Positions 2,191 to 28,937 are shown, counted from the stretch's first letter. The stretch: 29,669 nt of DNA from an uncultured Candidatus Peribacteria bacterium (GCA_964515125.1 CAZEUQ010000001.1:1-29669); one strand, 5' to 3'. A program made the numbers and translations. The notes: a model not told the origin generated them from the sequence alone.

Positions 2191-2433
2191 ATGGCCAAGA
2201 ACCAAAAACAGCAGCAGCAACAGACTCCGCTTACACAAAAGAAGTGTCCCTTCTGCGGCACCGAAGTGCAGTACTTCGATTATAAGGATTACCCCACGCT
2301 CAAGCCATACATCGACTACTTCGGAAACATCCGCGCGCGGTACTACACGGGCGTGTGCTTAAAGCACCAGAAAATGTTGAAGACAGCAATTGAGCGAGCG
2401 AGGTTTATGGCGATGTTGGCGTACAGGAAATAG
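2191..2433 (+). CDS. rpsR: 30S ribosomal protein S18 (Cys-containing, Zn-type)
   Basis: CPFC..FDYKD..L..YI..FGNI..R.YTGVC.KHQ..L..AIERARFMAML.Y. Confidence 0.97.
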   Translation: MAKNQKQQQQQTPLTQKKCPFCGTEVQYFDYKDYPTLKPYIDYFGNIRARYYTGVCLKHQKMLKTAIERARFMAMLAYRK

Positions 2434-2505
2434 TGAATAGCGATCAGCGGGTAGCGGTTAGCTTTTTTATATTTGCTATACGCTAAACGCTAGCCGCTAC
2501 GCGCT
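2431..2505. repeat. Inverted heptamer array (TAGCGnn / nCGCTA type)
   Basis: tagtgaa-tagcgat-cagcggg-tagcggt-tagc ... gctatac-gctaaac-gctagcc-gctacgc-gct. Confidence 0.75.
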
Positions 2506-2541
2506 TCTTCGATATAATCATCACCTCATACACTCTTTCCT

Positions 2542-3261
2542 ATGTCCGGCCACAGCAAATGGCATAACATCCGGGTCAAAAAAACCGCAAGCGATGCGAA
2601 GCGCGGGAAGATTTACACGCGGCATGCACGGTTGATCGAAATTGCCGCGCGCGCGGGTGGGGATCCTTCGTCTAATACGGCACTCCGAACGGCCATCGAC
2701 AATGCCAAAATGGAAAATGTTCCGAATGAGAACATTGATCGTGCCATCAAGAAGGGAACAGGAGAGTTAAAAGGGGAGCAGATGGCGGAAGTAGTGTACG
2801 AGGCATATGGCCCAGGTGGATCGGCGTTCATCATTGAATGCCTCACAGACAATAAAAACCGAACACTCTCAAATGTGAAGCTCATCCTCACGAAAAACGG
2901 AGGACGGTTTGCGGAAAGTGGGTCGGTCGCGTGGATGTTCGAACGAAAAGGTGTGGTCGTCGCCTCCGGCATTCCTTCGGAGAAGATCGAAGAAGTCGAA
3001 TGGGAACTCATCGATCTGGGTGCCGATGATTTTTCATCGCAAAATGATCATTTTGAAGTCATCACCACGATGTCCAAGTGGGCAGCTGTACGTGATGTGC
3101 TCAAGCAAAAGGGATACACGATCGAATCCGCAGGGCTCCAGTACCTCCCAAAAGATGCACTGACGATCGATGATGCAATGATGGAGCGCGTGGAACAACT
3201 GATCGATGCTCTAGAAGAAGATGATGACGTGAACGAAGTGCACACGAATGTACGTTCGTGA
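2542..3261 (+). CDS. yebC: YebC/PmpR family protein
   Basis: MSGHSKWHNI..K...DAKRGKIYT, YEAYGPGG, TDNKNRT, WMFERKG, LEEDDDVNEVHTN. Confidence 0.97.
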   Translation: MSGHSKWHNIRVKKTASDAKRGKIYTRHARLIEIAARAGGDPSSNTALRTAIDNAKMENVPNENIDRAIKKGTGELKGEQMAEVVYEAYGPGGSAFIIECLTDNKNRTLSNVKLILTKNGGRFAESGSVAWMFERKGVVVASGIPSEKIEEVEWELIDLGADDFSSQNDHFEVITTMSKWAAVRDVLKQKGYTIESAGLQYLPKDALTIDDAMMERVEQLIDALEEDDDVNEVHTNVRS

Positions 3262-3264
3262 TCA

Positions 3265-6171
3265 TTATGGTTGTTCGCGTGCTTTCAGCTCTTCCCCAAA
3301 CGTGAACGAGACGGATTCGTGTGCTTCCGTGAAGTATTCATTCGTCACGCTCACTTTCAGGACATGATTACCTTCCTTTTTCGCATTCCTTGGCATGCGA
3401 ATGCTCACTGTCAGATTCTTCGAGAGAGGATTTTCCTCCGTTCGGATTTTTAAGTCATCCACGAAGAATTCCACTTTGGAAATTTTTGCGAGGGAGCCGA
3501 TATGCACGTCTGCCTGGAATGCGGGGAAGGTCATACTCGCACCCTCCGACGGTGTGAGAATGGAAATGGTAGGGGTCTCACTGCGGCCCGGTGTCTTTGC
3601 AGGGTCACACGATTCCGTCGGCGCGAGAGGGAGGGGAAGAGTTGATCCACTGTGATCGGGAGATGCATTCCATTTCTCCATTTCCTTCTTTGCCCAGCTC
3701 TGTACGGACTGTTCCCAGAGAGGCCAGCGGAGTGGCTGTTCACTGCTTGGCAGAAAGAATGCTTTTTCCTCTACGGCATCTTCCGGGCATGCGGCGGATG
3801 CCAGTAGGTTTGTCACCTTATCCACTTTAAGGAGCTGGCACGCAGGGTCTTCTTTCGTCGGTGGATGATCATCCAGAAACAAGTCCGATCGACGTAGTTC
3901 AACGGGAGTACATGTTGTCGGGAGTTCACCGGAGAGCTTGGAAATTTGTGGCTCGATGAGTCCGTCTGGTCGTGGGAATGGCGCACCTGACGCCTTCAAA
4001 ATCTTGTGTGCGGATATCATGAATTGTTTCCACATCGGGGCAGCGCTGGAGAGGCCATCTGCTTTTGGTGCAAGCGACTGGCTTGTGGCGTTGCCGACCC
4101 ACACACCTGTAACAAGCGTCGGGGAGAAGCCCATCGTCCAGTTACTTTCCGGCCTGCGGTTTGTGCAGCCGCCGTTTTTGTCCCTCTCTAAACACTTGTT
4201 ACTCGTTCCTGTTTTTGCAGCTGCGGTAATACCGGGGACCGTAAGGGTATCTTTCCAGTACTGGTTTGCCGGACGCGCATTGTTATCACTCAATACAGAA
4301 CTGATTTGATAGGCAATGCGTGGGTCTAGCACCTGTTTATCTTTCGCTTCCTTCGCTTGGTACAAAATGTTTCCCTGACGGTCCGTAATTTTGAGGATCG
4401 TCACGGGGGGTCTGTACATTCCTCCATCTGCGAACGTTGCGTAGCCCTGGACCATTTCATAGAGCGGCACTTCGGCAGCACCCAAGGCCAGCGGCCAGCC
4501 GTAGTCAAAGGATGTTCCGCGCTTGGCTTCAATCTCCTCCTTCTGTTTTGATGGCGTCGTTATTCCTATACTTTCGACGAAAGGCAGAATCTGGTCTTCT
4601 CCTCCTGCGAGGAAGAATGTTTTTGCGGCAGGCACATTGCGTGAGTGGGCAAGAGCCGTTCGCATGGACATCAACCCTTCGTACGTTCCGTCGTAGTTGT
4701 CTGGCTGGTCATCACCTATTTTTGTTGGTACGTCATAAATGACGGTTGCAGGATTAAACCCATTCTCAAATGCTTTTGCATAAATGAAGGGCTTAAAACT
4801 GGAACCCGGTTGGCGTGGTGCCATGACCATGTCGATTTTTCCTTCGCTCGTACCGCTCTCGTAATCCACATTCCCGACGTATGCCAGAATTTCCCGTGTC
4901 GTTGGGTTCATGCTGAGAAGTGCGGCATTGTGCGCACCAAAGCGATCCAGTAATTCCTTTTGTTTTCCCTTAATGATCTTCTCCGCCACTTCCTGCAGTC
5001 GCCAGTCGAGTGTTGTCGTCACAGTAAATCCTCCCTGATTCAGGGTCTCTTCATCCACATTATTCAAGAGCGATTGCACCTGATCCCGCACGGCAAGAAC
5101 AAAGTGCGGTGCACGGATATTTTCTCGCGTGCGCGTGAAGACCATCACTTTTAGGTCCGCCAGCGCTTTCACCTTTTCTTTTTCGGTAATCAAATCCAAC
5201 TTTTGCATATTGTCGAGCACCTGGTCCGTGCGTCCCCCCACGTACACAAGATGGGACCCTGTTCCGATGTCCTGCCCGAGGAGGCCGATCGTGACATCAC
5301 GATCCGAAATATCACTGCTTTCGGTAATCTTACCACGCACAATGTCCGCGTAGACATCATCTGTTACGGTTGTGCGAACATGGCTTCCATACGGGCTAAA
5401 GTAGGATGGCCGTTGGGGGAGTGCCGCAAGAACGGCCGACTGTGCGAGGGATAACGCAACGGCACCCGTTCCAAAATACCTATGCGATGCCTGCTCAACA
5501 CCATAGGCATTTTCTCCGTACGGAATCCAGTTTAGGTAGAGTTCTAGTAATTGGTCTTTGTTGTATTTTCGTTCCAGTTCACATGCCAACATATATTCGC
5601 GTACTTTGCGAACAACACTTCGATTACGACCAACAAGCGCATTCCCTGCAAATTGCTGCGTGAGAGTAGATCCTCCGGATCGCACCAAGATGCCTGGTAA
5701 AAATTGGCTCAACACAGCGCGACTAAAACCAATGACATCAAAACATCCGCGGTCTAAAAAGCGTTCGTCTTCAATGGCGATGGTTGCTTTCTTGACGCCA
5801 TTGCTGATGTGGTCAAAAGGGATGTAGGTCCGATCCTGACCGGAAAAAACACGATAGAGCTCCACTCCATTTCTGTCCGCAATAACGGTACTTTGAGACG
5901 CAAAAAGAGTTTTTGGGTCATCAATATTTGGAAGCGTAAACCAAATGATAAGTAAGAAAAGAACGAGCGCCCCTGCACCCCATCCACACGTTTTGAAAAA
6001 GAGGATTTTCCATTCGCGGCGTGTGCGTGGTGTTTTTATCCACCGAATGAGTGCATCCTTCCAGTCACGCCCTTTTGCGAGAAGAGGAGATCTGCGGGAA
6101 GATCTTTTTTCATGGCGAGAACGCCTGTGTCGCTCGCCGAGTTCACGGGTCGAGAATCCAAAATCCTGCAT
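3265..6171 (-). CDS. Class A (bifunctional) penicillin-binding protein, PBP1A-like, with a C-terminal Cys-rich and Ig-like extension
   Basis: Transglycosylase motifs EDERF, GGSTLTQQ and RKVRE; transpeptidase motifs SSFK, SRN and KTGT; N-terminal TM. Start placed at ATG 6171, downstream of the promoter. Confidence 0.93.
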   Translation of the reverse strand: MQDFGFSTRELGERHRRSRHEKRSSRRSPLLAKGRDWKDALIRWIKTPRTRREWKILFFKTCGWGAGALVLFLLIIWFTLPNIDDPKTLFASQSTVIADRNGVELYRVFSGQDRTYIPFDHISNGVKKATIAIEDERFLDRGCFDVIGFSRAVLSQFLPGILVRSGGSTLTQQFAGNALVGRNRSVVRKVREYMLACELERKYNKDQLLELYLNWIPYGENAYGVEQASHRYFGTGAVALSLAQSAVLAALPQRPSYFSPYGSHVRTTVTDDVYADIVRGKITESSDISDRDVTIGLLGQDIGTGSHLVYVGGRTDQVLDNMQKLDLITEKEKVKALADLKVMVFTRTRENIRAPHFVLAVRDQVQSLLNNVDEETLNQGGFTVTTTLDWRLQEVAEKIIKGKQKELLDRFGAHNAALLSMNPTTREILAYVGNVDYESGTSEGKIDMVMAPRQPGSSFKPFIYAKAFENGFNPATVIYDVPTKIGDDQPDNYDGTYEGLMSMRTALAHSRNVPAAKTFFLAGGEDQILPFVESIGITTPSKQKEEIEAKRGTSFDYGWPLALGAAEVPLYEMVQGYATFADGGMYRPPVTILKITDRQGNILYQAKEAKDKQVLDPRIAYQISSVLSDNNARPANQYWKDTLTVPGITAAAKTGTSNKCLERDKNGGCTNRRPESNWTMGFSPTLVTGVWVGNATSQSLAPKADGLSSAAPMWKQFMISAHKILKASGAPFPRPDGLIEPQISKLSGELPTTCTPVELRRSDLFLDDHPPTKEDPACQLLKVDKVTNLLASAACPEDAVEEKAFFLPSSEQPLRWPLWEQSVQSWAKKEMEKWNASPDHSGSTLPLPLAPTESCDPAKTPGRSETPTISILTPSEGASMTFPAFQADVHIGSLAKISKVEFFVDDLKIRTEENPLSKNLTVSIRMPRNAKKEGNHVLKVSVTNEYFTEAHESVSFTFGEELKAREQP

Positions 6172-6180
6172 GAGACACAC

Positions 6181-6209
6181 AGTGTAGTGCCCCGTCCTTC
6201 GGGCTGCAA
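6181..6209 (-). promoter_or_regulatory. Sigma70 promoter of the PBP gene
   Basis: TTGCAG (6209-6204), a 17-nt spacer and TACACT (6186-6181), 9 nt before ATG. Confidence 0.6.
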
Positions 6210-6252
6210 CCGCTGGCGCTTATAGCGTAAAACGCTAAGCTACTCTGCAGAT

Positions 6253-6597: not shown

Positions 6598-6637
6598 AAA
6601 ACGCGCTTGACGCAGTGTGCTATACTTACTTTCCTCC

Positions 6638-7222
6638 ATGTCATCATCACTTCATCACGAACGCATTGCCCGCCTTCTTTCGGAGGCGGAAGAATTGAAA
6701 ATGGATGGAAAGAATGGAGAAGCCATCGTCCTTTTGGAATCAGTTCTCTTAGAAGACCCCAATAATGTCCCGGCGCTGGAAGAAGTTGCCGAGAATGAAC
6801 TTGCGCGGGAAGCATATGAGAGGGCTCGTCTTGCGGCACTGCAGGCAGTACAGCTGGATGAGAAGAGCGCCATTGGTCATGCTGTCCTTGGAGAAGTGTG
6901 CATGATCCAAAGGAATTGGGTTTCTGCCTACGATCATCTTAAAATTGCGAATCAACTTCTTCCCAATCATCCGGATACATTGCGCCTTCTTGGATGGGCC
7001 CTTTTCCGCACGGGCAAAACAGTTGAAGGAATTGTCACGCTAGAACGTGCATTGAACCTCGATCCCGATGACTCATTCATCATGTGCGACCTTGCAACGG
7101 CACACTTGGAATCCGGCGATGTTCTGAAGGGAAAACTTCTCTTAGAACGTGCTGCGGATTTGGATCCAACCAATGAGCACATCCGGGAGTGTAAGGATGC
7201 AGCAGAACGCATGATTGCGTAA
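6638..7222 (+). CDS. Tetratricopeptide-repeat protein
   Basis: Consecutive 34-aa repeats (LLEDPNNVPAL, LDEKSAIGH, LLPNHPDTL, LDPDDSFIM, LDPTNEHI); extended -10 TGcTATACT at 6618-6626. Confidence 0.85.
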   Translation: MSSSLHHERIARLLSEAEELKMDGKNGEAIVLLESVLLEDPNNVPALEEVAENELAREAYERARLAALQAVQLDEKSAIGHAVLGEVCMIQRNWVSAYDHLKIANQLLPNHPDTLRLLGWALFRTGKTVEGIVTLERALNLDPDDSFIMCDLATAHLESGDVLKGKLLLERAADLDPTNEHIRECKDAAERMIA

Positions 7223-7314
7223 ATACCAAATAACAAAGGCAAAATGACAAACAATTTTCAATCTATTGAAAATTATTGATTTCTTTTTGTTTGATACTTG
7301 GTAGTTGGCCTTTG
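7221..7314. repeat. Inverted heptamer array (CAAA / TTG type) around a perfect 10-bp hairpin
   Basis: aaatacc-aaataac-aaaggca-aaatgac, core AATTTTCAAT-ct-ATTGAAAATT (7253-7274), then TTG ending at 7293, 7300, 7307 and 7314. Confidence 0.75.
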
Positions 7315-7326
7315 AAACCTTACAAT
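7298..7326 (+). promoter_or_regulatory. Promoter of ftsX-recO, leaderless geometry
   Basis: TTGGTA, a 17-nt spacer and TACAAT; ATG follows after 6 nt. Confidence 0.6.
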
Positions 7327-7332
7327 ATCCCC

Positions 7333-8301: not shown

Positions 8302-8303
8302 TC

Positions 8304-10249: not shown

Positions 10250-10274
10250 GAGCGAATTGTACTGGTAGAAAAAG

Positions 10275-10346
10275 GAAATCAGAAATCAGAAGTCTGAGGT
10301 CAGTATCTCAACTTTCTGCTTCCTGCCTTCTGCCTTCTGACCTCTA
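10275..10346. repeat. Inverted heptamer array (GAAATCA / TTCTGCC type)
   Basis: gaaatca-gaaatca-gaagtct-gaggtca ... ttctgct-tcctgcc-ttctgcc-ttctgac-ctcta. Confidence 0.8.
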
Positions 10347-10889
10347 CTCGCTGTCGAGTGCTCTATTGACCAGGCTGTCTGCCCGAAAGTTATCTGCCCG
10401 TGGAATATGCTTAAAGACGACATCCGGAAATTGCAGCGTGAGTTCATGAATTTCCTCTACAAGCGGTGCCAGTGTCGGCATTTTTACGCGGTATTCTCCA
10501 TTCAGTTGTTTGACGACAAGTTCGGAGTCCATATGGCAGATAAGGCGGTTCGGGAGATAATTGAGAGCAAGCTTGAGGCCCGCAATGAGTGCACGATATT
10601 CCGCGACGTTGTTTGTTTCTATGCCAATGCGTTCCATGTGCTCTTCCAGCAGTGTTCCTTCAGGATCCACCAGGATGCAGCCGATGGCGGCTTGTCCTGG
10701 GTTTCCGCGCGAGCCTCCATCTGTAAAGAGATGCAGTGTGCCACCGATCATCTGGGGCACAGAAGGATCTGTTACGGTGACAGATTCCAGTGCTTTCTCT
10801 AAAGCTTCTGCAACAAATTTTTCTCGCTCCTTTGCGCGTGGGAAAATCTCTGCGAGTTTTTTCTCGAGGCGGGCGGGCAATTTCGTCAT
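10344..10889 (-). CDS. rnhA: Ribonuclease HI family protein with a ~45-aa N-terminal helical module
   Basis: FTDGGSRGNPG, TNNVAEY, DSELVVKQ and RADSL retain all four acidic catalytic residues. Start at ATG 10889, 6 nt after TACAAT. Confidence 0.9.
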   Translation of the reverse strand: MTKLPARLEKKLAEIFPRAKEREKFVAEALEKALESVTVTDPSVPQMIGGTLHLFTDGGSRGNPGQAAIGCILVDPEGTLLEEHMERIGIETNNVAEYRALIAGLKLALNYLPNRLICHMDSELVVKQLNGEYRVKMPTLAPLVEEIHELTLQFPDVVFKHIPRADNFRADSLVNRALDSE

Positions 10890-11678: not shown

Positions 11679-12923
11679 ATGAAATCCCTCTTCCGAACAA
11701 CAGCCATCGTTCTTTTGCCGCTTTTCACGCTGCTTCTTGGCGTTGCCGGTGGCATGAGCTATGTACGGCACCAGCAGGAACTGACTCATTCCACACTTGC
11801 CCATTTTTATGCGGGACAAACAGGCAGCGGTCAAACAGTTCTTGCGGATCCTGAACAAGAGGTAGATCTCACGATCCTCTGGGATGTCTGGAAGAGATTG
11901 CAGACGTACTACATTGCGCCCGATGAACTGAAAATTAATGACATGGTATATGGTGCCGTGCACGGTGCGGTGGAAGCGGTTGGAGATCCCTACACCGTCT
12001 TCATGACGCCGGTTGAAAATCGTGAGTTCCAGTCTGCTCTTTCAGGCGACTTAGAAGGGATTGGTGCAGAACTTGTGTTACGCGATGGCGTGATCATTGT
12101 CGTTGCTCCCATCAAGTCTTCACCGGCGGCAAAGGCAGGGCTTCTTCCGCAGGACATCATCGCGAAGGTGAATGGTGAAGATATCGCAGGCATGCGCCTG
12201 GATGAAGTTGTCGCAAAAATTCGCGGAAAGAAAGGGACGAGCGTGACGCTCACGGTGTACCGCGATGCAGAAGCCGAGCCGCTCGATTTCACCATCGTCC
12301 GCGACAGTATCCACATTCCGAGCGTCGATTCAAAAGTGATCGAAACAGAGTCAGGATCCATCGCGTACATCGAACTCAATTTCTTTGGGGATGAATCCGT
12401 GCATGAAATGCGAAAAGCAATGACGGCACTGGATCCGAAGAAGATACAAGGCCTTGTGCTGGATTTGCGCTTCAACGGCGGGGGCCTCCTCGATGCCGCC
12501 GTTGATATTGTGTCGATGTTCCTTAAAGAAGGGAAGGTTGTAGAAGTGCAGCGCCGCGATGCCGACCTGGAGACACATTTTGTGAATGGCCAGCCACTTC
12601 TTCCAAACGTTCCTATGGTTGTGCTCATCAATGAGGGCTCTGCGTCTGCATCGGAAATCGTCGCAGGTGCACTGCAGGACCATAAACGTGCAACGATCGT
12701 TGGCACACAGAGCTTCGGAAAGGGGACTGTACAGGAAGTGATCGACCTTCCCGGTGGAGCAAGCCTTCGTGTCACAATCGCGCGGTGGCTTACGCCCAAT
12801 GGTTTGAACCTCGGCAAAAAAGGTGTGACGCCGGACATCGTTGTAAAACGCACGACCAAAGATTATGAGAATGATGTAGATCCGCAGCTGGAAAAAGCAG
12901 AAGAAGTACTGCTGGAGCGATAA
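11679..12923 (+). CDS. ctpA: C-terminal processing protease, S41A, with PDZ domain
   Basis: GDPYT, GIGAEL, PDZ GKKGTSVTL, LDLRFNGGG, SASASE, SFGKGTVQ; N-terminal TM from MKSLF. Confidence 0.95.
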   Translation: MKSLFRTTAIVLLPLFTLLLGVAGGMSYVRHQQELTHSTLAHFYAGQTGSGQTVLADPEQEVDLTILWDVWKRLQTYYIAPDELKINDMVYGAVHGAVEAVGDPYTVFMTPVENREFQSALSGDLEGIGAELVLRDGVIIVVAPIKSSPAAKAGLLPQDIIAKVNGEDIAGMRLDEVVAKIRGKKGTSVTLTVYRDAEAEPLDFTIVRDSIHIPSVDSKVIETESGSIAYIELNFFGDESVHEMRKAMTALDPKKIQGLVLDLRFNGGGLLDAAVDIVSMFLKEGKVVEVQRRDADLETHFVNGQPLLPNVPMVVLINEGSASASEIVAGALQDHKRATIVGTQSFGKGTVQEVIDLPGGASLRVTIARWLTPNGLNLGKKGVTPDIVVKRTTKDYENDVDPQLEKAEEVLLER

Positions 12924-12990
12924 GCGTGTAGCGAATAGCACCATAAAATTACTATCCGCTATCCGCTCATCGCAAGCCGCTTCTTCGCTA
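12921..12990. repeat. Inverted heptamer array (TAGC / CGCT type) between the convergent ctpA and ndk stops
   Basis: taagcgt-gtagcga-atagc ... CGCT/CGCA at 12957, 12964, 12971, 12978 and 12986. Confidence 0.7.
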
Positions 12991-13407
12991 GTACGAAAAC
13001 AACTCCTCATCCTTGAAGAATCTTTTAATCTCCTTCTCCGCCGTCTCTGCACTATCCGACGCATGGGCGACGTTGATCATCATATCCGTTCCAAATTCTG
13101 AGCGGATTGTTCCTGGTGCTGCCTTGCGACTATCGGTCACACCCAACATGTCGCGCATCGTCGCGATGACATTCTCTGCCTCCAGCGCAAGAGCAATGAC
13201 GGGCTTGGACGACATGAACTTTTCAATCTCCGGGTAGAATGGTTTATCGGCAACGTGTGCGTAGTGCTCACGCCACACATCTGGGGAAGGGTGCATCATT
13301 TTGCAGCCGATCACCTTAAATCCTGCGTCTTCAAAACGCGTGATGACCTTGCCGCAGAAGCGGCCGCTTACAGCATCAGGCTTTAAAAGAATGAGGGTAC
13401 GTTCCAT
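12988..13407 (-). CDS. ndk: Nucleoside diphosphate kinase
   Basis: MERTLILLKPDAV, G.IITRFE, PGTIRSEFG, and catalytic His in NVAHASDS. Confidence 0.97.
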   Translation of the reverse strand: MERTLILLKPDAVSGRFCGKVITRFEDAGFKVIGCKMMHPSPDVWREHYAHVADKPFYPEIEKFMSSKPVIALALEAENVIATMRDMLGVTDSRKAAPGTIRSEFGTDMMINVAHASDSAETAEKEIKRFFKDEELFSY

Positions 13408-13455
13408 CGGTGGGAAATGAAGAAGCGGGAGGATGGTAGAGGAAACGGACGAAGA

Positions 13456-13523
13456 ATAATAGAGCAAGAGAATAGTAGAATAATAGGATATAGAACCTCT
13501 TACTCTTATTCTTTTACTCATTA
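13456..13523. repeat. Degenerate 6-8-nt periodic inverted array (AATAG / CTTA type)
   Basis: ataatag..gaatagtagaataataggatatagaa / ctcttactcttattcttttactca; the period is irregular. Confidence 0.45.
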
Positions 13524-14780
13524 CGATAAAAGATCCAACAAAGTCTTTTTATTATCCTCCTTCCCAATCACCGCAAGACGGAGTTTCTCGGTTGTGAGCA
13601 GCGTCTTTGCGAGTGCATTTACTTGTTCCAGCGTTACACGGTCGATCTCCTCCATGTATTCCTGAATGTCACGGACATGAGGGTAGAGGAGCTGTTGCTT
13701 TCCATAAAAATGCGCACGTTCTTCGCTGTCTTCTAGGGACAATGTAATTTTTCCTTTCAGATAATCTTTACCGCGTTTCAATTCCTCTTTTGTAATGCCA
13801 TCTTTTGCACACACGTCATATTCATGACGGATCAAGGTGATGGCTTCATGAAGACGCGCTTGATCCACGCCAGCGCGAGTCGACAAAATTCCTGCATCCA
13901 TATAATTATCCGTCGATGTGGAAATGTAGTAGCACATCCCTTTTGCTTCGCGGATGTTCAAGAACATACGTGAGCTCATGGAGCCACCTAGAACAACGGC
14001 CAGAATTTTCTGTGCAAAATGATTTGGATCTTGTGAGGAAATTCCCTGTACGCCTAAGACAAGGTGTGCCTGCTCTGTTGGCTTTGAGCGGAGGAACAAG
14101 CGTTCCTGTGGGCAGGCGGCAAGCGGCTCCCATGCGCGGGCTTTCTTGCCTCCCACCGCTCCAAAATATGTCTCGCCCAGTTTCATCGCATCCTTCTCTG
14201 TGATGTTCCCCGCGAATGTGACGACGAGATTATCGGGTGTATAAAACTCGTTCTTGTGACGCATGAAGTCTTCTTGATTCACGGAACGGATCACAGCTTC
14301 CGTTCCGATGGTATCCCACCCGAGAGGCTGATCCCCAAAAAGGAGCTGTTCAAAATCCCATCCTGCCTGGTACATGGGTGTGTCTTGGTACATCCTGTAT
14401 TCCTCAATAATCACGCCGCGTTCTTTTTCTATTTCATCCTGCGGGAACGTTGCATGGATCAACATGTCCGAGAGCACATCGCATGCCAGTTCCGCATGGG
14501 TCGCTTCTACCTTTACGTAGTAGCCTGCATATTCCTTTCCGGTAAATGCATTGAAATCGCCGCCCACTGAGTCAATGGCCATACTGACCTGCGCCGCCGA
14601 CGTGTACTTTCCTCCGCCTTTGAAGAACATGTGTTCTAAAAAGTGACTTATGCCGCGCTCCGCATTTGTCTCGTAGCGTGACCCTGCGCCCGCAAAGACC
14701 AAAACTGTCACCGCTGCAGTGCCGTCTACGGGGGCCGTAAGAATAGGAAGGCCGGATGCGAGGCGGTTTATGGTGTACAT
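13521..14780 (-). CDS. M16 family (pitrilysin-like) zinc peptidase
   Basis: GSRYE...GISHFLEHMFFKG (HxxEH), NAFTGKEY, IEKERGVIIEE, SSRMF..IRE.KG.CY.I. Confidence 0.95.
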   Translation of the reverse strand: MYTINRLASGLPILTAPVDGTAAVTVLVFAGAGSRYETNAERGISHFLEHMFFKGGGKYTSAAQVSMAIDSVGGDFNAFTGKEYAGYYVKVEATHAELACDVLSDMLIHATFPQDEIEKERGVIIEEYRMYQDTPMYQAGWDFEQLLFGDQPLGWDTIGTEAVIRSVNQEDFMRHKNEFYTPDNLVVTFAGNITEKDAMKLGETYFGAVGGKKARAWEPLAACPQERLFLRSKPTEQAHLVLGVQGISSQDPNHFAQKILAVVLGGSMSSRMFLNIREAKGMCYYISTSTDNYMDAGILSTRAGVDQARLHEAITLIRHEYDVCAKDGITKEELKRGKDYLKGKITLSLEDSEERAHFYGKQQLLYPHVRDIQEYMEEIDRVTLEQVNALAKTLLTTEKLRLAVIGKEDNKKTLLDLLS

Positions 14781-14841
14781 CGAGGCAAGTGTAAGGGAAA
14801 AATACCAAAGGCCAAAGGCTATGCGAAATATCACCCCTCTC

Positions 14842-14895
14842 CGTAGCGGCAGCTCCGGAGCTGCCGCTAGCAGCGAGCCCTGGCTCGCTGCTACG
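14842..14895. repeat. Paired perfect palindromes (REP-doublet-like)
   Basis: A 26-bp perfect palindrome TAGCGGCAGCTCCGGAGCTGCCGCTA (14844-14869) overlaps by TA with a 12-bp stem TAGCAGCGAGCC-ct-GGCTCGCTGCTA (14868-14893). Confidence 0.75.
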
Positions 14896-14901
14896 AAGGT
14901 G

Positions 14902-14930
14902 TTGGCAAGCCAGTATCTCTCCTCTACAAT
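14902..14930 (+). promoter_or_regulatory. Sigma70 promoter of rpmH
   Basis: TTGGCA, a 17-nt spacer and TACAAT, 9 nt before ATG. Confidence 0.7.
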
Positions 14931-14939
14931 GCCCCGGTC

Positions 14940-15083: not shown

Positions 15084-15174
15084 CACATTGCAGGTTGTGC
15101 GGGCGGCAAGTTTTTTTATCGTGCTACCTTGCCACCTGCTACCCTTTTATGAAGACAAGGAATATCATCCGGTC

Positions 15175-18369: not shown

Positions 18370-18417
18370 GGGAGTAGCGTAGCGTGAGGTGGGCGTTCTT
18401 GCCACAGGGGGAAAATT

Positions 18418-18476
18418 CGAAGCACGAAGCATGAAATCCGAAATTTTCGGATTTCGATATTCGGATTTCGGATTTA
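18418..18476. repeat. Inverted heptamer array (CGAA / TTCG type), copy 1
   Basis: cgaa-gcacgaa-gcatgaa-atccgaa-att-ttcggat-ttcgata-ttcggat-ttcggat-tta. Confidence 0.85.
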
Positions 18477-18899
18477 TTCTTTTATCTCAAACTGCAATGC
18501 CCTCGCATCTCCATTCGTTTCGTCCCCAACCTTGACGACCATGGTGTAACTGCCAGCCGGCCAGTCCGATTCCTTTTCCAGTTCAAACTTTGCAAGATTT
18601 AAGTTGGGGCTTGCCGTCACGGAATATGATGTGAAGTAGTTTTTGTCATCACCGTACTTCCAGAAGGCAACTACGGGGATGTCCTCTTTTACGTTTTCAA
18701 TTTCCGCATTAAAGAGGATATGCCGGTCTGTTGTCTTGAAGGTGGTCACCGGATTTTCAATCTGCTCCTGCGCGCTGCGCGAGAGACCTGCCGAGATTGC
18801 TCCAACAGTGGTTTCTGGTGTTCCTTTTACCTGGCCAGAGACAGAGGCTTGGCAGGCGGTTAAGAGAAGAATGGCCGACGCAAGAATGAGCTTCTTCAT
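18474..18899 (-). CDS. Putative lipoprotein with a beta-rich, Ig-like domain
   Basis: Lipobox-type N-terminus MKKLILASAILLLTAC; beta-strand pattern with WPAGSYTMVVKVG and a terminal FEIKE. Confidence 0.75.
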   Translation of the reverse strand: MKKLILASAILLLTACQASVSGQVKGTPETTVGAISAGLSRSAQEQIENPVTTFKTTDRHILFNAEIENVKEDIPVVAFWKYGDDKNYFTSYSVTASPNLNLAKFELEKESDWPAGSYTMVVKVGDETNGDARALQFEIKE

Positions 18900-18950
18900 G
18901 CCACAAGGATATAACAGGTGATTGATGAAAAGAAGACAGAAAACAGTGTG

Positions 18951-19040
18951 TGGCGGAGAGGGGGGGATTCGAACCCCCGAGACCCTTGCAGGTCTACACG
19001 CTTTCCAAGCGTGCGCACTAGGCCACTATGCGACCTCTCC
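18951..19040 (-). tRNA. tRNA-Ser(GGA)
   Basis: Acceptor stem GGAGAGG/CCTCTCC, anticodon arm CACGC-TTGGAAA-GCGTG, long variable arm, GGTTCGAATCC T-arm, encoded CCA; 90 nt. Confidence 0.97.
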
Positions 19041-19083
19041 TGATGTAGCCGCGGAAGTATAGCGAAAGAACCATTTTCAAAAA

Positions 19084-19126
19084 AACCAATAACGAATAAC
19101 CAGTCAACCAATCAACCAATAACTTA
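19084..19126. repeat. Single-arm 7/8-mer array (AACCAAT(C) type)
   Basis: aaccaat-aacgaat-aaccagtc-aaccaatc-aaccaat-aac, abutting the rpmB stop. Confidence 0.75.
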
Positions 19127-19333
19127 CACCGCCCTTCCCTCACCCATCCTTTTTGCCAATGTCCTTAAGTACGAGGTCGCTACCTTCATCGTTCTGTATG
19201 TTCCTGTTTGAGGGTCAAACACACGCTTCTTTTGGATGTTCGCACGAAACACACGGCGTGTTGCACGCAGCGAGTGGCTGCGGCGGTTGCCCGAAGAGTT
19301 TCCTTTGCCGGTTTTGACACATCGATGAGCCAT
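19124..19333 (-). CDS. rpmB: 50S ribosomal protein L28
   Basis: MA.RC..TGK....GN.RSHS...T.R.F..N.QKKR. Confidence 0.95.
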   Translation of the reverse strand: MAHRCVKTGKGNSSGNRRSHSLRATRRVFRANIQKKRVFDPQTGTYRTMKVATSYLRTLAKRMGEGRAV

Positions 19334-19342
19334 TGGGAGGGT

Positions 19343-19371: not shown

Positions 19372-19394
19372 TGGTTTCCTTGCTCGCTAGGAAA

Positions 19395-19453
19395 GCACGA
19401 AGAACGAAGCGCGAAACTCGAAATTTTCGGATTTCGTACTTCGAGTTTCGAAT
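19395..19453. repeat. Inverted heptamer array (CGAA / TTCG type), copy 2
   Basis: gcacgaa-gaacgaa-gcgcgaa-actcgaa-att-ttcggat-ttcgtac-ttcgagt-ttcgaat. Confidence 0.88.
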
Positions 19454-19474
19454 TTTCATCGGTACGATGATGCT

Positions 19475-20781: not shown

Positions 20782-20823
20782 AGTATTGATACTTTATAAG
20801 AAATTTTATTTAAGTCAATTCCA

Positions 20824-20898
20824 TGGAGCCGCTGACGGGAATTGAACCCGTGACCCCCTCCTTACCATGGAGGTGCTCTACCCCTGAGCTACAGCGGC
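20824..20898 (-). tRNA. tRNA-Thr(GGT)
   Basis: Acceptor stem GCCGCTG/CAGCGGC, anticodon arm CCTCC-ATGGTAA-GGAGG, T-arm ACGGG-TTCAATT-CCCGT, encoded CCA; 75 nt. Confidence 0.97.
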
Positions 20899-20932
20899 CT
20901 AAGTGCGTGGAAGTTTACAAGTCCTCTATGCT

Positions 20933-21334: not shown

Positions 21335-21341
21335 AAGGAGG

Positions 21342-22580
21342 TTATTGGTTGATTCGTTGGTTAGTTCTTAGTTTGCCGATTGCCTTCTGTAATGCAGTAG
21401 CGAAAAGGTCGAGATCTTCCATCGTGTTGTAGATCCCAACCGAGAGACGAGTTGAAGCAGGGATCTTCAGATGTTTATGAAGAAGCTGCGCACAATGATG
21501 TCCTGCCCGAAGCATCACTCCTTCCTCGCTCAACAGTTGCGTAAGGTCATGAGGGTGGATGTCGTCGATGGTAAAACTGATGCAGCCGGAGATCTTGGAG
21601 GGATTACTTGGGCCTAATACGTTGATTGGTTGATTGGTTTTTAGTTTTTGGAAAAGATCGAGAGCATGTGTAAGAAGTGAGTGCTCATGTTTTTGAATTT
21701 CATCGAAGCCGATGGAATTGATCCACTCGATTGCTGCCCGTAGTCCGACCGCCTCTGCAATAGCGGGAGTGCCTGCTTCAAATTTTCGCGGAAGTTCCGC
21801 ACACAAAAAACCATCTGCGCGTACATCGGCAATCATATCGCCACCACCGAGAAACGGAGGCATGGTATCAAGGAGTTCCTCCTTACCATACAGTACCCCG
21901 ATTCCCGTCGGACCATACATTTTATGGCCAGAGAAAGCTAAAAAATCGCAATTGAGTTTTTGTACGTCAATCGGTTCATGGGCAGCCATTTGTGCGGCAT
22001 CAATCATCACAACTGCGCCTTTCTTTTGTGCAAGATCAATCATCATTTCAATCGGTTGCCTTGTTCCAAGTACATTGCTTACAGCAGAGACGCTCACGAG
22101 CTTCACAGGATGATCTGTGAGGATTTTTTTGTAGTGATCCAGATCGATCATTCCTTCATCATCAATGTCTACCCATTCAATCTGTACACCAATCTCATCT
22201 TTCAGTTGCAACCACGGAACAATATTTGAATGGTGTTCGAGGATCGTGAGAACAATGACGTCGCCTTTTTTGAAGATTGATCGTGCATATGTCTTCGCAA
22301 CAAGATTGATACTCTCCGTCGTGTTTCTCGTAAAAATCACTTCATGCGACTTCTTTGCATTGATGAATCTCTGTACCGTCTTCCGTGCATCGTCGTACGC
22401 AATGGTCGCCGCCTCTGCCAGTTTGTGGACGCCACGATTGATATTCGCGTTCGATGTTGTGTAGAACTGGTCCATGGCATCCAGCACGGCTTGAGGTTTC
22501 TGTGTTGTTGCGGCGTTATCCAGATAGATCACGCCGGACTCAAGAAGAGGGAATTGCCGGCGAATGACATTCAGATCCAC
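21342..22580 (-). CDS. sufS: Cysteine desulfurase, SufS type
   Basis: YLDNAATTQKP, NINRGVH, EHHSN.VPW, FSGHKM.GPTGIG, RAGHHCAQ. Start moved to GTG 22580 (MDLNVIRRQFP). Confidence 0.96.
   Translation of the reverse strand: MDLNVIRRQFPLLESGVIYLDNAATTQKPQAVLDAMDQFYTTSNANINRGVHKLAEAATIAYDDARKTVQRFINAKKSHEVIFTRNTTESINLVAKTYARSIFKKGDVIVLTILEHHSNIVPWLQLKDEIGVQIEWVDIDDEGMIDLDHYKKILTDHPVKLVSVSAVSNVLGTRQPIEMMIDLAQKKGAVVMIDAAQMAAHEPIDVQKLNCDFLAFSGHKMYGPTGIGVLYGKEELLDTMPPFLGGGDMIADVRADGFLCAELPRKFEAGTPAIAEAVGLRAAIEWINSIGFDEIQKHEHSLLTHALDLFQKLKTNQPINVLGPSNPSKISGCISFTIDDIHPHDLTQLLSEEGVMLRAGHHCAQLLHKHLKIPASTRLSVGIYNTMEDLDLFATALQKAIGKLRTNQRINQ
21621..21639 (-). repeat. AACCAATC octamer tandem inside the sufS coding sequence
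   Basis: Minus strand aaccaatc-aaccaatc-aac encodes (K)TNQPIN; the unit matches the intergenic arrays at 19084 and 28833. Confidence 0.6.
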
Positions 22581-22605
22581 ATCTTTTATCTTACATCTTC
22601 TGTCT
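22581..22605 (-). repeat. Single-arm heptamer array forming the sufS promoter region
   Basis: Minus strand agacaga-agatgta-agataaa-agat-GTG, containing TAAGAT 7 nt before GTG. Confidence 0.55.
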
Positions 22606-22629
22606 CCATCCGGTACTCTAAGAACCTCT

Positions 22630-25497: not shown

Positions 25498-25499
25498 CC

Positions 25500-26168: not shown

Positions 26169-26497
26169 CCATCACTCCGTACCAAATCATCGTGCCATGT
26201 ATCTCACTCTTCCTCGTCTTGTATGCGTGGAGTCTTGTTATGCGCCAGAAGAAGACGATTTGGGAAGGCTGCCTCTGGACCTTCTTTTGGGGTGTTATTG
26301 CTTACCTTGCGGTGTACCCGGATAGCGTGCAGTTCTTAAGTCGCATTACAGGAATCCGCCGCAACGAAACGGCTATTTCTGTGACAGCCATCGGTGTCCT
26401 GTTCTTCATTGTGTTCTACCTCATTATTCGCATCGAGGAATTGCATCAAAGAATTACAAAGTTGACGAGGGAGGATGCCTTGAAAGATCTTACGTAA
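26165..26497 (+). CDS. DUF2304-family small membrane protein
   Basis: W..FW..I...AV.P.....LSRITGI.R, then I.VLFFIVFYL..RI..L.QRITKL.RE.AL; GTGA overlap with the GT2 gene. Confidence 0.8.
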   Translation: MTITPYQIIVPCISLFLVLYAWSLVMRQKKTIWEGCLWTFFWGVIAYLAVYPDSVQFLSRITGIRRNETAISVTAIGVLFFIVFYLIIRIEELHQRITKLTREDALKDLT

Positions 26498-26523
26498 GGA
26501 GACACGCGCTACCATCATTTCTC

Positions 26524-27678
26524 ATGGATCACCTCACACAATCCTTTCCAGCAACCCTGCAAACAGGGAAGAAGATTCTTCTCGTAAGCCCCTATTGGCT
26601 GGAAGACCATCGCTGGATGATCAGTTCCGTGAAATTAAGCGAGCTCTGGCAACGCATGGGGTACAGCGTCACGGTTGTCTGCATGGGGTCAAAAAACCAT
26701 ATCGAAAAAATCTCGGATACTCTCACGGTTCACTTCCGAAAAGATATTTTCCTTCCAGACCCGTTTAACTATGGTATTGCGTTTGGATTTTCCCGTTACG
26801 TCGCAGCGGTTGCGGATGATATGAAGCCCGATCTCGTCATCGTCAACAAAGTGCTCTTCTGGTCCTCGCTTGCCATCTTCCGTTTGAAAAGGAAGGGATA
26901 TTCCGCGCTACTCATTACGGATGCTCTCGTGGGAATAACCTGGAAGCCGCGCCATTGGTACTCCAAAATTATTATGGCATGTGGTGCATGGACGGTAGGG
27001 CGCATGGTCTTACACGCAGCATCGCGCATTGTGTTCTTCCATCCGCAACCATCCGATGTACTTCAAAAGCTGAAGATCGATCAACAATCGACAGTGATTC
27101 CGACTGGCATTGATCCGTCACTGTTCCATGCAGATCAATCTATGATCGATCAAGCCATTCACATAACGTATGTGGGGCGCTTGGAATCTGTCAAAGGGGT
27201 GGATGATTTTTTAGAAGCAGCACAATGCATCAAAGAAAAATATCCCGAAATCGTCATTCAAGTCGTAGGGTGGTACAAAGATCGTCACGATCTTGTCGCG
27301 AAGTACGAATCATCCGTGATTTTTACGGGGCTTTCGAACGACATCCCCGGGATCCTTCGTGGAACCGATATTTTTGTGCTTCCAAGTCACTCGGAAGGCC
27401 TCAGTAATGCGCTGATGGAAGCTATGGCGAGCGGATGTGCGTGCATCGCAACGAACGTAGGAGGCAATGCTTTTTTGATCGAACACGAAAAGTCCGGCTT
27501 ACTCTTCACGCCGGGGGATCGCAAGGTCCTTCAGATGCATATGGAAACATTGATCGATGATGGCGCATATCGATTATGGCTTGGAACTGCGGCACGACAT
27601 AGGATCGAGGAACAATTTTCCTGGGAGATCGTCAGCAAGCAGTACCGGAATATTTTTGAGAAAATGATGGATCGTTAG
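26524..27678 (+). CDS. GT4 family glycosyltransferase
   Basis: IPTGID, YVGRLESVKGVD, DIFVLPSHSEGLSNALMEAMASG. Confidence 0.93.
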   Translation: MDHLTQSFPATLQTGKKILLVSPYWLEDHRWMISSVKLSELWQRMGYSVTVVCMGSKNHIEKISDTLTVHFRKDIFLPDPFNYGIAFGFSRYVAAVADDMKPDLVIVNKVLFWSSLAIFRLKRKGYSALLITDALVGITWKPRHWYSKIIMACGAWTVGRMVLHAASRIVFFHPQPSDVLQKLKIDQQSTVIPTGIDPSLFHADQSMIDQAIHITYVGRLESVKGVDDFLEAAQCIKEKYPEIVIQVVGWYKDRHDLVAKYESSVIFTGLSNDIPGILRGTDIFVLPSHSEGLSNALMEAMASGCACIATNVGGNAFLIEHEKSGLLFTPGDRKVLQMHMETLIDDGAYRLWLGTAARHRIEEQFSWEIVSKQYRNIFEKMMDR

Positions 27679-27696
27679 CTCATCATCAGCTAACGA
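27672..27696. terminator. Hairpin at the 3' end of the first GT4 gene (possible terminator or processing site)
   Basis: TCGTTAGCT-catcatc-AGCTAACGA, a 9-bp perfect stem with no immediate U-tract. Confidence 0.4.
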
Positions 27697-27778
27697 CCGG
27701 AAGAAATGAATTTTTTTTGATCATCTTTTTCAAATGGATCAATCTATCATTTCTCTGGAGCAGGTTATACTTTCTCTG

Positions 27779-28846
27779 ATGAAGAAAAAAATTGTGCTCA
27801 TCTCCGCATTCCTGCGTCCTCTGCGAAGCGGTGCGGAAGCCATGGTGGAAGAAGTATCCGTCAGGTTGCATGATCACTACACCATCGTCATTGTAACAGC
27901 GCGCATGCAGCGCAAGCTTCCGAAAGAAGATTTGCTCGATGGAGTAGTGCGTGTTCGACGCGTGGGAGTCGGAATATTTTTCATTGATAAGTGGCTGTTT
28001 CCCATCTTTGCATTCTTTGCTGTGCGTCGGGAAAAGCCGGATCTCATCCATGCCGTTCTTGAGTCATTTGCAGGCTTCACACTCACCTTGTGCAAGCTCT
28101 TCTTGCGCAAGCCAAAACGTCTTCTTACGTTGCAAAGCACCAACACGAAGCTTTTTCTGCGTTCCATTCATCGCAGCGCGCACGCCATTACGGGTATCAG
28201 CTCCGTTCTTCTGCTTCGCGCACGTCAGTTTGGTCGCGATGACGTGATCTACATTCCAAATGGCATTGACCTTCCTGCTCTGCAAGCGTCATGCACGCGG
28301 TTCCAGCGCGTTCGAGGGCGCATCCTTTTCGTTGGGCGCTTAGAACATGTGAAGGGGGTCGATACACTCCTCCTCGCATTTTCGGAACTGACTGATACAA
28401 CCCTCACCCTGACCATCGTAGGGGATGGAAGCGAACGTGATGCACTGCAGAAGCAGGCACAGCAACTGCGGATTGCAGATCGCACGGAATTCCTCGGTAA
28501 GCTCACGCCGCTCAAGGTCTACGACCAGTACGCAAGTGCAGAAATATTCGTAGGGCTTTCCCGCAGTGAGGCACTGGGCAATGTCTTTTTAGAGGCACAG
28601 GCAGCAGGATGTGCTGTGGTCGCCTCCAATGTGGGCGGTATCCCGGAGATTGTGAAAGATCAGGTCACAGGGATTCTCGTTCCACCGGAAGATCCGGATA
28701 TGGCCGCACAGGCGATCCATCAACTCCTCACAAATGTACCGCTTCGAACATCCCTTACTGCGGCTGCGCAGGAGCATGTGAAGGTATTTGATTGGCGGCT
28801 CATCGCAGAGCGATATAAGAAGGTTTATGAGGGGTTGATTGGTTGA
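27779..28846 (+). CDS. GT4 family glycosyltransferase
   Basis: SGAE, IPNGID, FVGRLEHVKGVD, SRSEALGNVFLEAQAAG; ATG 7 nt after TATACT (27766-27771). Confidence 0.93.
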   Translation: MKKKIVLISAFLRPLRSGAEAMVEEVSVRLHDHYTIVIVTARMQRKLPKEDLLDGVVRVRRVGVGIFFIDKWLFPIFAFFAVRREKPDLIHAVLESFAGFTLTLCKLFLRKPKRLLTLQSTNTKLFLRSIHRSAHAITGISSVLLLRARQFGRDDVIYIPNGIDLPALQASCTRFQRVRGRILFVGRLEHVKGVDTLLLAFSELTDTTLTLTIVGDGSERDALQKQAQQLRIADRTEFLGKLTPLKVYDQYASAEIFVGLSRSEALGNVFLEAQAAGCAVVASNVGGIPEIVKDQVTGILVPPEDPDMAAQAIHQLLTNVPLRTSLTAAAQEHVKVFDWRLIAERYKKVYEGLIG

Positions 28847-28937
28847 TTGGCTTGAGAGTTGACTGGTTCATTGTCCACATCGCCGGTTTATCGTAAAAGA
28901 GATCACTAAAAACGAATCAACGAATCAACCAACAACC
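28833..28937. repeat. Inverted octamer array (GGTTGATT / AACGAATC type) between convergent genes
   Basis: ggttgatt-ggttgatt-ggcttgag-agttgact-ggttcatt ... aacgaatc-aacgaatc-aaccaac-aacc. Confidence 0.8.

Follow-up and report, generated by a model that had tools for sequence, protein, structure and literature searches.

Hairpin arrays among the genes of the window

The window is a stretch of 29,669 nucleotides that forms contig C1 of a 1.0-Mb MAG (G000) from an uncultured Patescibacteria bacterium; a filamentous cyanobacterium is excluded as the host. The seven main loci of inverted 7- or 8-nt repeats named in the original prediction are present, each folding into a long stem, and the case at 13456–13523 that had been regarded as weaker also folds. 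The eight hairpins have z scores of −2.1 to −5.2 and stems with an internal loop each 7–8 nt. The first (2427–2510; z −5.0 for the fold of 2425–2512) comprises TAGC-type 7-nt units, four to five per arm, and its first unit includes the TAG stop codon of the gene at 2191–2433. In metagenome run X2, positions 2436–2536 are swapped for a different 85 nt. The hairpin at 7221–7306 (z −2.5, fold of 7215–7312) is flanked by two convergent stop codons and has CCAAA/CAAA-type 7-nt units in 42-nt arms that are 71% complementary; the orthologous site in the congener, G001, bears an AGAACCA-type hairpin. CAGAA-type 7-nt units form the hairpin at 10275–10346 (z −2.5, fold of 10268–10350), which adjoins the stop codon (10344–10346) of a minus-strand gene. 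Strains X2 and X7 do not have one 7-nt unit at 10323, and the G001 counterpart is a CCAAA-type hairpin. The TAGCG-type 7-nt units at 12913–12990 (z −2.8, fold of 12912–12992) fill the space that separates two convergent stop codons (12921–12923 and 12988–12990), where G001 possesses a GCTAG-type hairpin, and the GAGTAAGA/AGAATAAT-type 8-nt units at 13456–13523 (z −2.9, fold of 13450–13530) adjoin the stop codon at 13521–13523.

Two further hairpins are built from CGAAA-type 7-nt units. One (18406–18483; z −5.2) is located in the region from the stop at 18474 to the pheT start and is replaced in G001 by a CAGAAGG-type hairpin. The other (19387–19460; z −2.8) is located where rpmB and an M50 peptidase gene diverge, and the site carries a CAGAA-type hairpin both in G001 and in strain L140, in which the flanking coding sequence is near-identical. 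The hand count of ~22 paired positions in 28 for 19395–19453 is revised to 23 Watson-Crick matches in 35 by ungapped alignment and to 24 positions, G-U pairs included, by RNAfold. The last hairpin (28833–28937; z −2.1, fold of 28828–28935) is situated between convergent stop codons and consists of GGTTGATT / AATCAACC 8-nt units with a spacer of 56 nt, and its left arm forms the last codons of a glycosyltransferase gene. A weak hairpin of GCAGGT/GGTAGC-type units (15092–15145; z −1.6) is situated just past the rpmH stop codon and has an ACGAG-type hairpin as its counterpart in G001.

Of the single arms that had been proposed, those at 19084–19126 and 21341–21375 are genuine arrays, that at 14805–14819 is minimal with two CCAAAGG units, and that at 22581–22605 is marginal, being uncalled by TRF at a score of 30. 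The array at 19084–19126 has AACCAATC-type units and adjoins the stop codon of rpmB on the minus strand; it is unpaired with no fold, is assigned a period of 7 by TRF though the unit belongs to an 8-nt family, and is retained in diverged form in G001. An identical metatranscriptome contig of 235 nt spans tRNA-Ser, this array and the 3′ end of rpmB, a match for which transcript and DNA carry-over are indistinguishable. The GGTTGATT-type units at 21341–21375, also unpaired with no fold, overlap the terminal codons of sufS, a gene that contains another short copy internally at 21621–21639; the final eight residues of SufS are unalignable with those of G001. In strain X7, positions 14785–14916 are swapped for a 78-nt sequence similar to a CGAAA-type arm. 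A further single arm, of two CAGAA units, is beside tRNA-Ser (18931–18946) and has four units in G001.

Abundance, families and placement of the arrays

The shared architecture, 7- or 8-nt period and dispersal of these loci extend to the entire genome. With an array defined as ≥3 units at ≥85%, 105 arrays were detected at lag 7 compared to 2.0 in shuffled controls, and 36 at lag 8 compared to none; longer lags were scarce in the same test (four arrays at lag 9 and one at lag 10). TRF recovered 135 arrays of period 7 and 93 of period 8, with 19 of each in block-shuffled DNA. Among 529 intergenic regions of ≥30 nt, 138 (~26%) contain an array; the figure is ~1% after shuffling and 1.6% for coding controls. 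The total load is well over a hundred arrays in the 1-Mb genome. Over-represented intergenic tandem 7-nt units in at least two to three copies also characterize heptameric simple-sequence repeats and STRRs, the heptamer repeats of heterocystous cyanobacteria. The analogy with STRRs that had been drawn holds for this resemblance, but the host is a member of the Patescibacteria and the units differ, being presumably unrelated to the STRR1–3 consensus.

The cores recur across the genome as about ten families, with the order of the arms fixed within each family (26:0), and the same unit families are found in G001. Members of a family are 77–82% alike over 70–90 nt, but their loops differ and their unit counts vary. 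Stems comprise ~20–32 pairs and, like those of IVS-type elements, are long and formed by terminal inverted repeats; complementarity between arms holds mainly at the level of the family rather than of single units (646 matches observed and 567 expected, of 846). An origin of the arms by fold-back was rejected: unit-by-unit complementarity barely surpassed a unit-permutation control, in a test that is inflated by choice of the best register. No near-identical copies of whole elements were found except in two pairs, and at least one of these (C71/C10) represents another repeat type; given this paucity and the unconserved loops, a copy-paste MITE is not favored. At the sites read individually, neither target-site duplications nor empty sites were seen, and as the loops also are unconserved, transposition is not demonstrated.

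The arrays are close to stop codons (median distance 8 nt; ≤5 nt in 43%) and ~54 nt from start codons. This placement fits a role in which the hairpins serve the host as terminators, 3′-end protectors or operon punctuation, as does the finding of no match to Rho_RNA_bind in this 95%-complete genome. Convergent regions also are slightly richer in arrays (32% versus 24–27%), and a hairpin is present in G001 at every orthologous intergenic region that was examined, as the original prediction had proposed to check. We nevertheless regard such a role as the primary explanation as unlikely. Divergent regions are as array-rich as tandem ones, no U-tract rule is apparent in the examples read, and canonical terminators with a GC stem and T-run coexist with the arrays in the genome (e.g., C7:11885–11921). 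The stems are long and mismatched, which together with the equally populated divergent regions excludes function solely as intrinsic terminators. Nor does the transcribed strand display a G-U bias: wobbles are unenriched on the sense strand (30 versus 49), and selection on pairing at the RNA level was rejected on this basis. Moreover, near-identical strains swap or shorten the hairpins, and the arrays are not found in sister genera without a PF05635 match (see below). The common structure-based function that had been suggested thus is not favored, although it is compatible with the interpretation preferred here because elements can be co-opted.

PF05635 cassettes and their distribution

A search for four-helix-bundle genes, which had been recommended, proved key to interpretation. 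The genome contains five PF05635/TIGR02436 ("23S rRNA IVS protein"; IVP) genes, and all five are enclosed on both sides by inverted 7- or 8-nt arrays. In four of these cassettes the arms clearly correspond to families of gene-less hairpins: GAGAATT on C7, GGTTGATT in both cassettes on C16, and AAGGCAAT on C3. The fifth, at the end of contig C115, has TAGGG-type arms. Cassettes in G001 have arms of CAGAAGG, ACGAG, GAATT and GAGTAAGA types, and clean single-period arms are evident in 27 of 49 cassettes from relatives with enough flanking DNA. For every family in which a cassette was seen, the hairpins have the same arm order as the cassette; no cassette in G000 or G001 was found for the abundant CGAAA, TAGCG, CCAAA and GTTTATTC hairpin families. 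The sequence-independent generator that had been invoked to account for seemingly unrelated cores therefore is not supported, as there are instead about ten recurring families with fixed arm order that are common to the congener, several of which match cassette arms. Within the window, the hairpin at 28833–28937 shares its unit family with the arms of both C16 cassettes, and by eye, unaligned, the arms at 13456–13523 look like the same family as cassette L143 of G001. A PF05635 open reading frame in the loop is absent from all of the window loci, and as cassettes of the same families exist elsewhere, the window copies are gene-less relatives.

The IVP proteins match the sequence of 2GSC, a solved relative from Xanthomonas campestris that is a pentameric ring (PMC4990558). 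An alternative identity as Avd, the accessory protein of diversity-generating retroelements (DGRs), was rejected: three of the five proteins score 23–42 bits against NF033474, for which the cut-off is 80, and the other two are unmatched. A DGR link also is countered by the result of the proposed reverse transcriptase check, in which the genome yielded no RVT_1 match. At orthologous sites in G001, the C7 cassette is conserved, the C16 site has unrelated GC hairpins and the C3 site has a 4.5-kb insert, and no clean empty site was found in this comparison of cassettes with solo hairpins. It is highly improbable that the arrays are REP/REPIN-like elements moved by RAYT-type Y1 transposases, since although the genome has four PF01797 (Y1_Tnp) genes, none is bordered by 7- or 8-nt arrays or located between heptamer arms, and at least three instead have short, GC-rich, REP-like palindromes on their flanks, which belong to another repeat class.

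Across 26 related genomes, some of whose contigs were sampled because they hold an IVP gene, array density correlates with the number of PF05635 genes (Spearman rho 0.80, with relatives that are non-independent). Nine of the ten genomes without a PF05635 match have essentially no arrays; the exception, G016, has arrays but no match. Phylogenetically independent pairs number only four to six, of which two to three are concordant and none discordant, which is too few for significance. When arm period (7, 8 or 9 nt) was mapped on the IVP tree, five changes were required compared to 6–11 in 5000 shuffles, none of which matched the observed fit. The clade with 9-nt arms comprises proteins from five genomes, and among the genomes sampled the density of arrays at lag 9 is highest in G018, which has a 9-nt cassette. 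The correlation between protein and arm sequence is weak (Mantel r 0.145). The 23S rRNA gene of G001 is interrupted by two gene-less hairpins of GAATT type at model positions ~96–195 and ~1177–1241, the latter being helix 45, the classical IVS site. The window copies are intergenic rather than in 23S helices 9, 25 or 45, and the 23S gene of G000 is unassembled.

These distributions bear on whether the arrays are plain simple-sequence repeats that emerge de novo by slippage and hairpin template-switching, with no tie to any gene and with IVP genes merely landing or surviving in them. Near-identical strains differ by loss of one 7-nt unit or by a hairpin of another family at one site, and such polymorphism in unit number, the variable loops and unit counts, and complementarity that is mainly at family level are what this explanation anticipates. 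Slippage also is proposed as the cause of heptamer over-representation in PMC4692102, which cites a 2007 survey. We consider it improbable as a full account: the arrays fall into few recurring families with invariant arm order that are common to the congener, essentially none were found in nine of the ten relatives without a PF05635 match, and arm period tracks the IVP clade. The hairpin replacement in L140 could reflect allelic recombination rather than insertion because this substitution, the only one readable at strain level, covers the entire intergenic region.

Probable relationship to 23S rRNA intervening sequences and heptamer repeats

The window arrays probably are gene-less members of hairpin families that belong to the type of element known as the ORF-bearing 23S rRNA intervening sequence (IVS). 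In Coxiella burnetii and Leptospira, such elements comprise an inverted-repeat stem around a PF05635/S23p gene (PMC4990558), as do the cassettes here. In Coxiella the IVS comprises a stem of 28 bp, an S23p ORF and tandem GACAGAT heptamers that vary between strains, and RNase III cleaves at the first repeat (PMC4990558). The cassettes likewise have heptamers of variable copy number arranged in tandem within the stem next to the ORF, the same hairpin family is at helix 45 of the 23S rRNA in the congener, and an RNase III gene is present in G000. In contrast to the 23S elements, the window copies are devoid of a gene and are located between protein-coding genes, the genome carries more than 100 arrays in ~ten unit families per 1 Mb, and the arms consist nearly entirely of 7-, 8- or 9-nt units with periodic mismatches. 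Moreover, whereas the IVP gene is decaying in Coxiella, an orthologue pair here has a dN/dS of 0.13, and the protein therefore is under purifying selection.

By analogy with IVS stems, the window hairpins are probable substrates of RNase III, which would cleave the mismatched stems after transcription so that read-through transcripts merely would be processed. The elements may be selfish or nearly neutral and would persist where harm is least, flush with stop codons and away from promoters and start codons, with replication slippage altering the number of units. A tentative extension, which we hold to be possible but the less probable outcome, is that the PF05635 four-helix-bundle protein is a trans-acting reader of tandem 7-, 8- and 9-nt units, with the clade of the protein setting the period, and that it propagates or maintains the inverted arrays with no need for a transposase or reverse transcriptase.

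Heptamers described elsewhere include (GGGAATC)n convergent pairs in Xanthomonas and GGGGAYT in Nostoc (PMC4692102), and TAACTGA in Beggiatoaceae, cyanobacteria and Bacteroidetes (PMC4679880). Shared with the arrays here are tandem 7-nt units, mostly ~four per array, and variation in length and sequence at orthologous sites between close species; in Xanthomonas, the source of the solved IVP relative 2GSC, inverted pairs also are frequent (70–75 cases). However, the published repeats involve one or a few units per genome and no gene association is given, whereas in this genome many families coexist, 8-nt units occur too, and each family is matched to a cassette lineage save for the four abundant families noted above. 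A survey of rRNA-gene insertions in CPR bacteria (PMC11270868) concerns the same host group and reports 23S_rRNA_IVP ORFs in some 16S and 23S insertions, but is confined to rRNA genes and mainly homing-endonuclease introns, with no heptamer arms or intergenic copies described. Like MITEs and REPINs, the hairpins are short, non-coding, intergenic inverted repeats that far outnumber their gene-bearing relatives, but they have no conserved interior, no target-site duplication was seen, their arms comprise tandem units and vary in length, and the associated gene is no known transposase. No paper linking heptamer repeats to the IVS element was found in the literature searched.

The hairpins reshape gene ends, as illustrated by the C-terminal codons of SufS and the glycosyltransferase, and probably fragment assemblies; their fast-changing sites offer possible markers for typing strains of wastewater Patescibacteria. 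The population represented by this genome is abundant in sequencing runs from activated sludge and wastewater. What bacterial heptamer repeats (STRR, GGGAATC and TAACTGA) are for and where they come from, and what the ORF-bearing 23S IVS is, have been two separate puzzles. The same hairpin families occur here in three settings, namely flanking the IVS-protein gene and, with no gene of their own, both between genes and within 23S rRNA, and array abundance and period track the protein. Thus, both puzzles become the single question of whether tandem 7–9-nt units are what the four-helix-bundle protein binds or propagates. If it propagates or maintains them, the arrays would represent a mobile or self-propagating element of a new type that would account both for the STRR-like heptamers of cyanobacteria, Xanthomonas, Bacteroidetes and CPR bacteria and for rRNA intervening sequences.

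Tandem Arrays and Their Unit Families

The window is contig C1 (29.7 kb) of the host genome (G000; 1.015 Mb in 141 contigs, 49% G+C). It carries the housekeeping genes yebC, pheT and sufS, others for a class A PBP, a ctpA-like S41 protease, an M16 peptidase and glycosyltransferases, a VanW-like gene, the 5′ part of a 16S rRNA gene, and two tRNA genes. Genes rpmH (L34; 14940-15083, forward strand) and rpmB (L28; ~19127-19342, reverse strand), each with an array directly 3′, were missed with an 80-aa ORF cut-off. On sequence grounds the host is a CPR bacterium and not a filamentous cyanobacterium, because the closest named relative of its PheT protein (69% identity) is from a Patescibacteria group bacterium MAG. 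The genome encodes RNase III.

Tandem runs of 7- or 8-nt units, with the inverse complement after each run, were evident in the window sequence, as predicted originally. When folded, the seven main loci and one that had been rated as weaker formed long stems with an internal loop each 7-8 nt (z -2.1 to -5.2); single arms did not fold, which matches expectation. In a genome-wide lag autocorrelation that required at least three units with at least 85% lag identity, lag 7 yielded 105 runs and lag 8 yielded 36, compared to two and none, respectively, in shuffled sequence, and only four runs were recovered at lag 9 and one at lag 10. TRF identified 135 period-7 and 93 period-8 arrays genome-wide, but 19 of each in block-shuffled DNA. 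Arrays comprise 2-7 units (mode 4). Of the 529 intergenic regions in our own gene map that span 30 nt or more, 138 (26%) contain an array, compared to ~1% of their shuffled counterparts and 1.6% of controls from coding sequence.

The cores had been thought to be private to each locus, but instead recur genome-wide in about ten families (CAGAAGG, CGAAATC, TAGCG, GAGAATT, ACGAG, CCAAA, GGTTGATT, GTTTATTC, AAGGCAAT, and TAGGG). Each family has a single arm order: with nine core definitions, adjacent inverted pairs were arranged "forward then reverse" in 26 cases and oppositely in none, for which the chance probability is ~2^-19 when the first pair of each family is discounted. Thus, the shared architecture proposed in the original prediction was borne out, whereas the recurring families and their fixed arm order argue against the suggested sequence-independent origin. 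Family members are only 77-82% alike and loop sequences vary inside families. Watson-Crick pairs occupied ~76% of stem positions and 67% after units were permuted within an arm, and therefore most of the complementarity stems from family identity. As G-U wobbles showed no enrichment on the transcribed strand (30 vs 49), nothing indicates selection on RNA pairing.

Array Variation and Position Relative to Genes

The window is fully syntenic with contig C11 of the same-genus genome G001, in which every orthologous intergenic region examined contains an inverted array, mostly of a different unit family. The family switches from CGAAA in the window to CAGAAGG in G001 at 18406-18483, from CAGAA to CCAAA at 10275-10346, and from CCAAA to AGAACCA at 7221-7306. 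Contigs from three other metagenomes, with flanking coding sequence near-identical to the window, revealed changes at strain level. A single 7-nt unit was absent at window position 10323, the hairpin at 2436-2536 was swapped for a different 85 nt, and 14785-14916 was swapped for 78 nt resembling a CGAAA-type arm. Moreover, the entire rpmB/M50-peptidase intergenic region was exchanged, with a CAGAA-type hairpin in place of the CGAAA-type hairpin of the window and differences at 0-3 positions in the flanking genes. Therefore, the arrays change in two ways, by slippage of units and by replacement of whole loci, and the latter could reflect insertion or allelic recombination.

The tRNA loci also differ between the two genomes. 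Beside the G001 orthologue of the tRNA-Ser gene (window 18951-19040), an extra ~130 nt (C11 ~169600-169760) repeats the tRNA 3′ end (TGGCGGAGAGG) and resembles a scar left by element integration. By the tRNA-Thr orthologue (window 20824-20898), a ~1.2-kb insert that is absent from the window (C11 ~171600-172800) lies between partial and full copies of the tRNA-Thr 3′ end and includes two small ORFs that may form a toxin-antitoxin-like pair.

Arrays occurred in 24% of tandem, 27% of divergent and 32% of convergent regions. The median distance from stop codon to array was 8 nt, with 43% at 5 nt or less, compared to ~54 nt from start codon to array, and several window arrays overlap the stop codon or encode the final codons of the gene (sufS and the second glycosyltransferase). 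This anchoring to stop codons agrees with a role for the hairpins as host terminators, as does the failure to find Rho in the genome; however, the role is at odds with arrays in divergent regions, the absent G-U bias, and the array-less sister genera. Individual copies may have been co-opted.

Units of the GGTTGATT type encode the C-terminal residues of the second glycosyltransferase (28833-28846), the last eight residues of SufS (21342-21375), which do not align with G001, and an internal SufS stretch, TNQPIN (21621-21639). One metatranscriptome-library contig of 235 nt, identical to window 18941-19175, spans tRNA-Ser, the AACCAATC array and the 3′ end of rpmB, which may denote co-transcription or else DNA carry-over.

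PF05635 Cassettes and the Gene-Array Link

The co-occurrence of four-helix-bundle genes with the arrays, raised in the original prediction, was found: the genome contains five PF05635 matches and inverted 7/8-nt arrays flank all five. Each protein matches TIGR02436 ("four helix bundle protein"), with DGR Avd matched below threshold, and one has a match to 2GSC, a solved Xanthomonas protein deposited with five chains. The arms of four of the five cassettes clearly belong to families also known as gene-less hairpins. The arms are GAGAATT on contig C7, GGTTGATT in both copies on C16, and AAGGCAAT on C3; the fifth cassette, at the end of C115, has TAGGG-type arms. The forward arm is on the upstream side of the gene, matching the arm order of gene-less hairpins. 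Cassette arms in G001 are CAGAAGG, ACGAG, GAATT, and GAGTAAGA, and the C7 cassette is conserved at the orthologous site with a dN/dS of 0.13 for its protein. The site of the C3 cassette is occupied in G001 by a 4.5-kb segment (C11:277808-282376) and not by the 0.7-kb cassette. Cassettes with arms of the abundant CGAAA, TAGCG, CCAAA, and GTTTATTC families were found in neither of these two genomes. Among relatives, the ORF was present in 52 of 53 fetched loci, and of the 49 loci whose flanking DNA was long enough, 27 had clean single-period arms.

Across 26 related genomes, whose relatedness means that they are not independent, PF05635 count correlated with 7/8-nt array density in sampled DNA that included contigs chosen for holding a PF05635 gene (Spearman rho 0.80). 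Nine of ten genomes without a PF05635 match have essentially no arrays; genome G016 is an exception to the association. The PheT tree provided only 4-6 independent contrasts, of which 2-3 were concordant and none discordant. When arm period was mapped on the tree of PF05635/TIGR02436 proteins (IVP), five changes were required compared to 6-11 in 5000 label shuffles. Arms of 9-nt units occur in five of six members of one well-supported IVP clade, from five genomes, and lag-9 array density among the sampled genomes peaks in G018, which possesses a 9-nt cassette. Slippage alone, by which arrays would arise without any tie to the gene, accounts for unit polymorphism, but leaves unexplained why families are few and arm order is fixed, why arrays are scarce in relatives without a PF05635 match, and why period maps to clade. 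A link with RAYT transposases was rejected since the four RAYT-like Y1_Tnp genes of G000 (PF01797; C87:1967-2197, C17:4810-5103, C51:4998-5213, and C5:17372-17608) carry another repeat class, short GC-rich REP-like palindromes which flank at least three of them, and reverse transcriptase genes, also proposed for scrutiny, were not found in the genome.

Two gene-less heptamer hairpins of the GAATT type break up the 23S rRNA gene of G001, one between model positions ~96-195 and the other at 1177-1241, the helix-45 site that is the seat of the classical intervening sequence (IVS). Therefore, hairpins of one unit family are present in three settings: flanking the PF05635 gene and, without it, in intergenic DNA and in 23S rRNA. 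In locus L172 (G001:C66:866-6404), the 23S match ends at model position 2044 of 2925, which indicates another insertion or a break beyond that point; hairpins of 9-nt units flank the gene (L172:126-219 and L172:4429-4576).

Other repeats also were noted. The palindromes by the Y1_Tnp genes represent a second class, and a GC-rich double palindrome is located upstream of rpmH (window 14836-14890) and is conserved in G001. A third repeat of ~96 nt surrounds a GCCCTGAGGCCTTCAGGCCC-type hairpin in copies that are 93-99% identical (G000 C71:4578-4673, C10:14041-14136, and C14:1-71).

Relation to Known Intervening Sequences

The IVS described for Coxiella contains an S23p ORF, has a stem of 28 bp, and carries, next to the ORF, tandem GACAGAT heptamers that vary between strains; RNase III cleaves it at the first of these repeats (PMC4990558). 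Published precedents are intervening sequences of rRNA that bear ORFs (PMC4990558), CPR rRNA insertions, some of which hold IVP ORFs (PMC11270868), TAACTGA repeats (PMC4679880), and heptamer repeats, among them the convergent pairs of Xanthomonas (PMC4692102). The Xanthomonas study does not mention a PF05635-type gene (PMC4692102), and no paper in the literature searched joins these observations. Both the means by which the arrays spread and any effect that the protein has on them are inferred. The new elements here are cassette and gene-less forms within one genome, array dynamics visible at strain level, and tests of period against clade and of abundance. Overall, the arrays are assigned to a class of IVS-type elements that live mainly outside rRNA.
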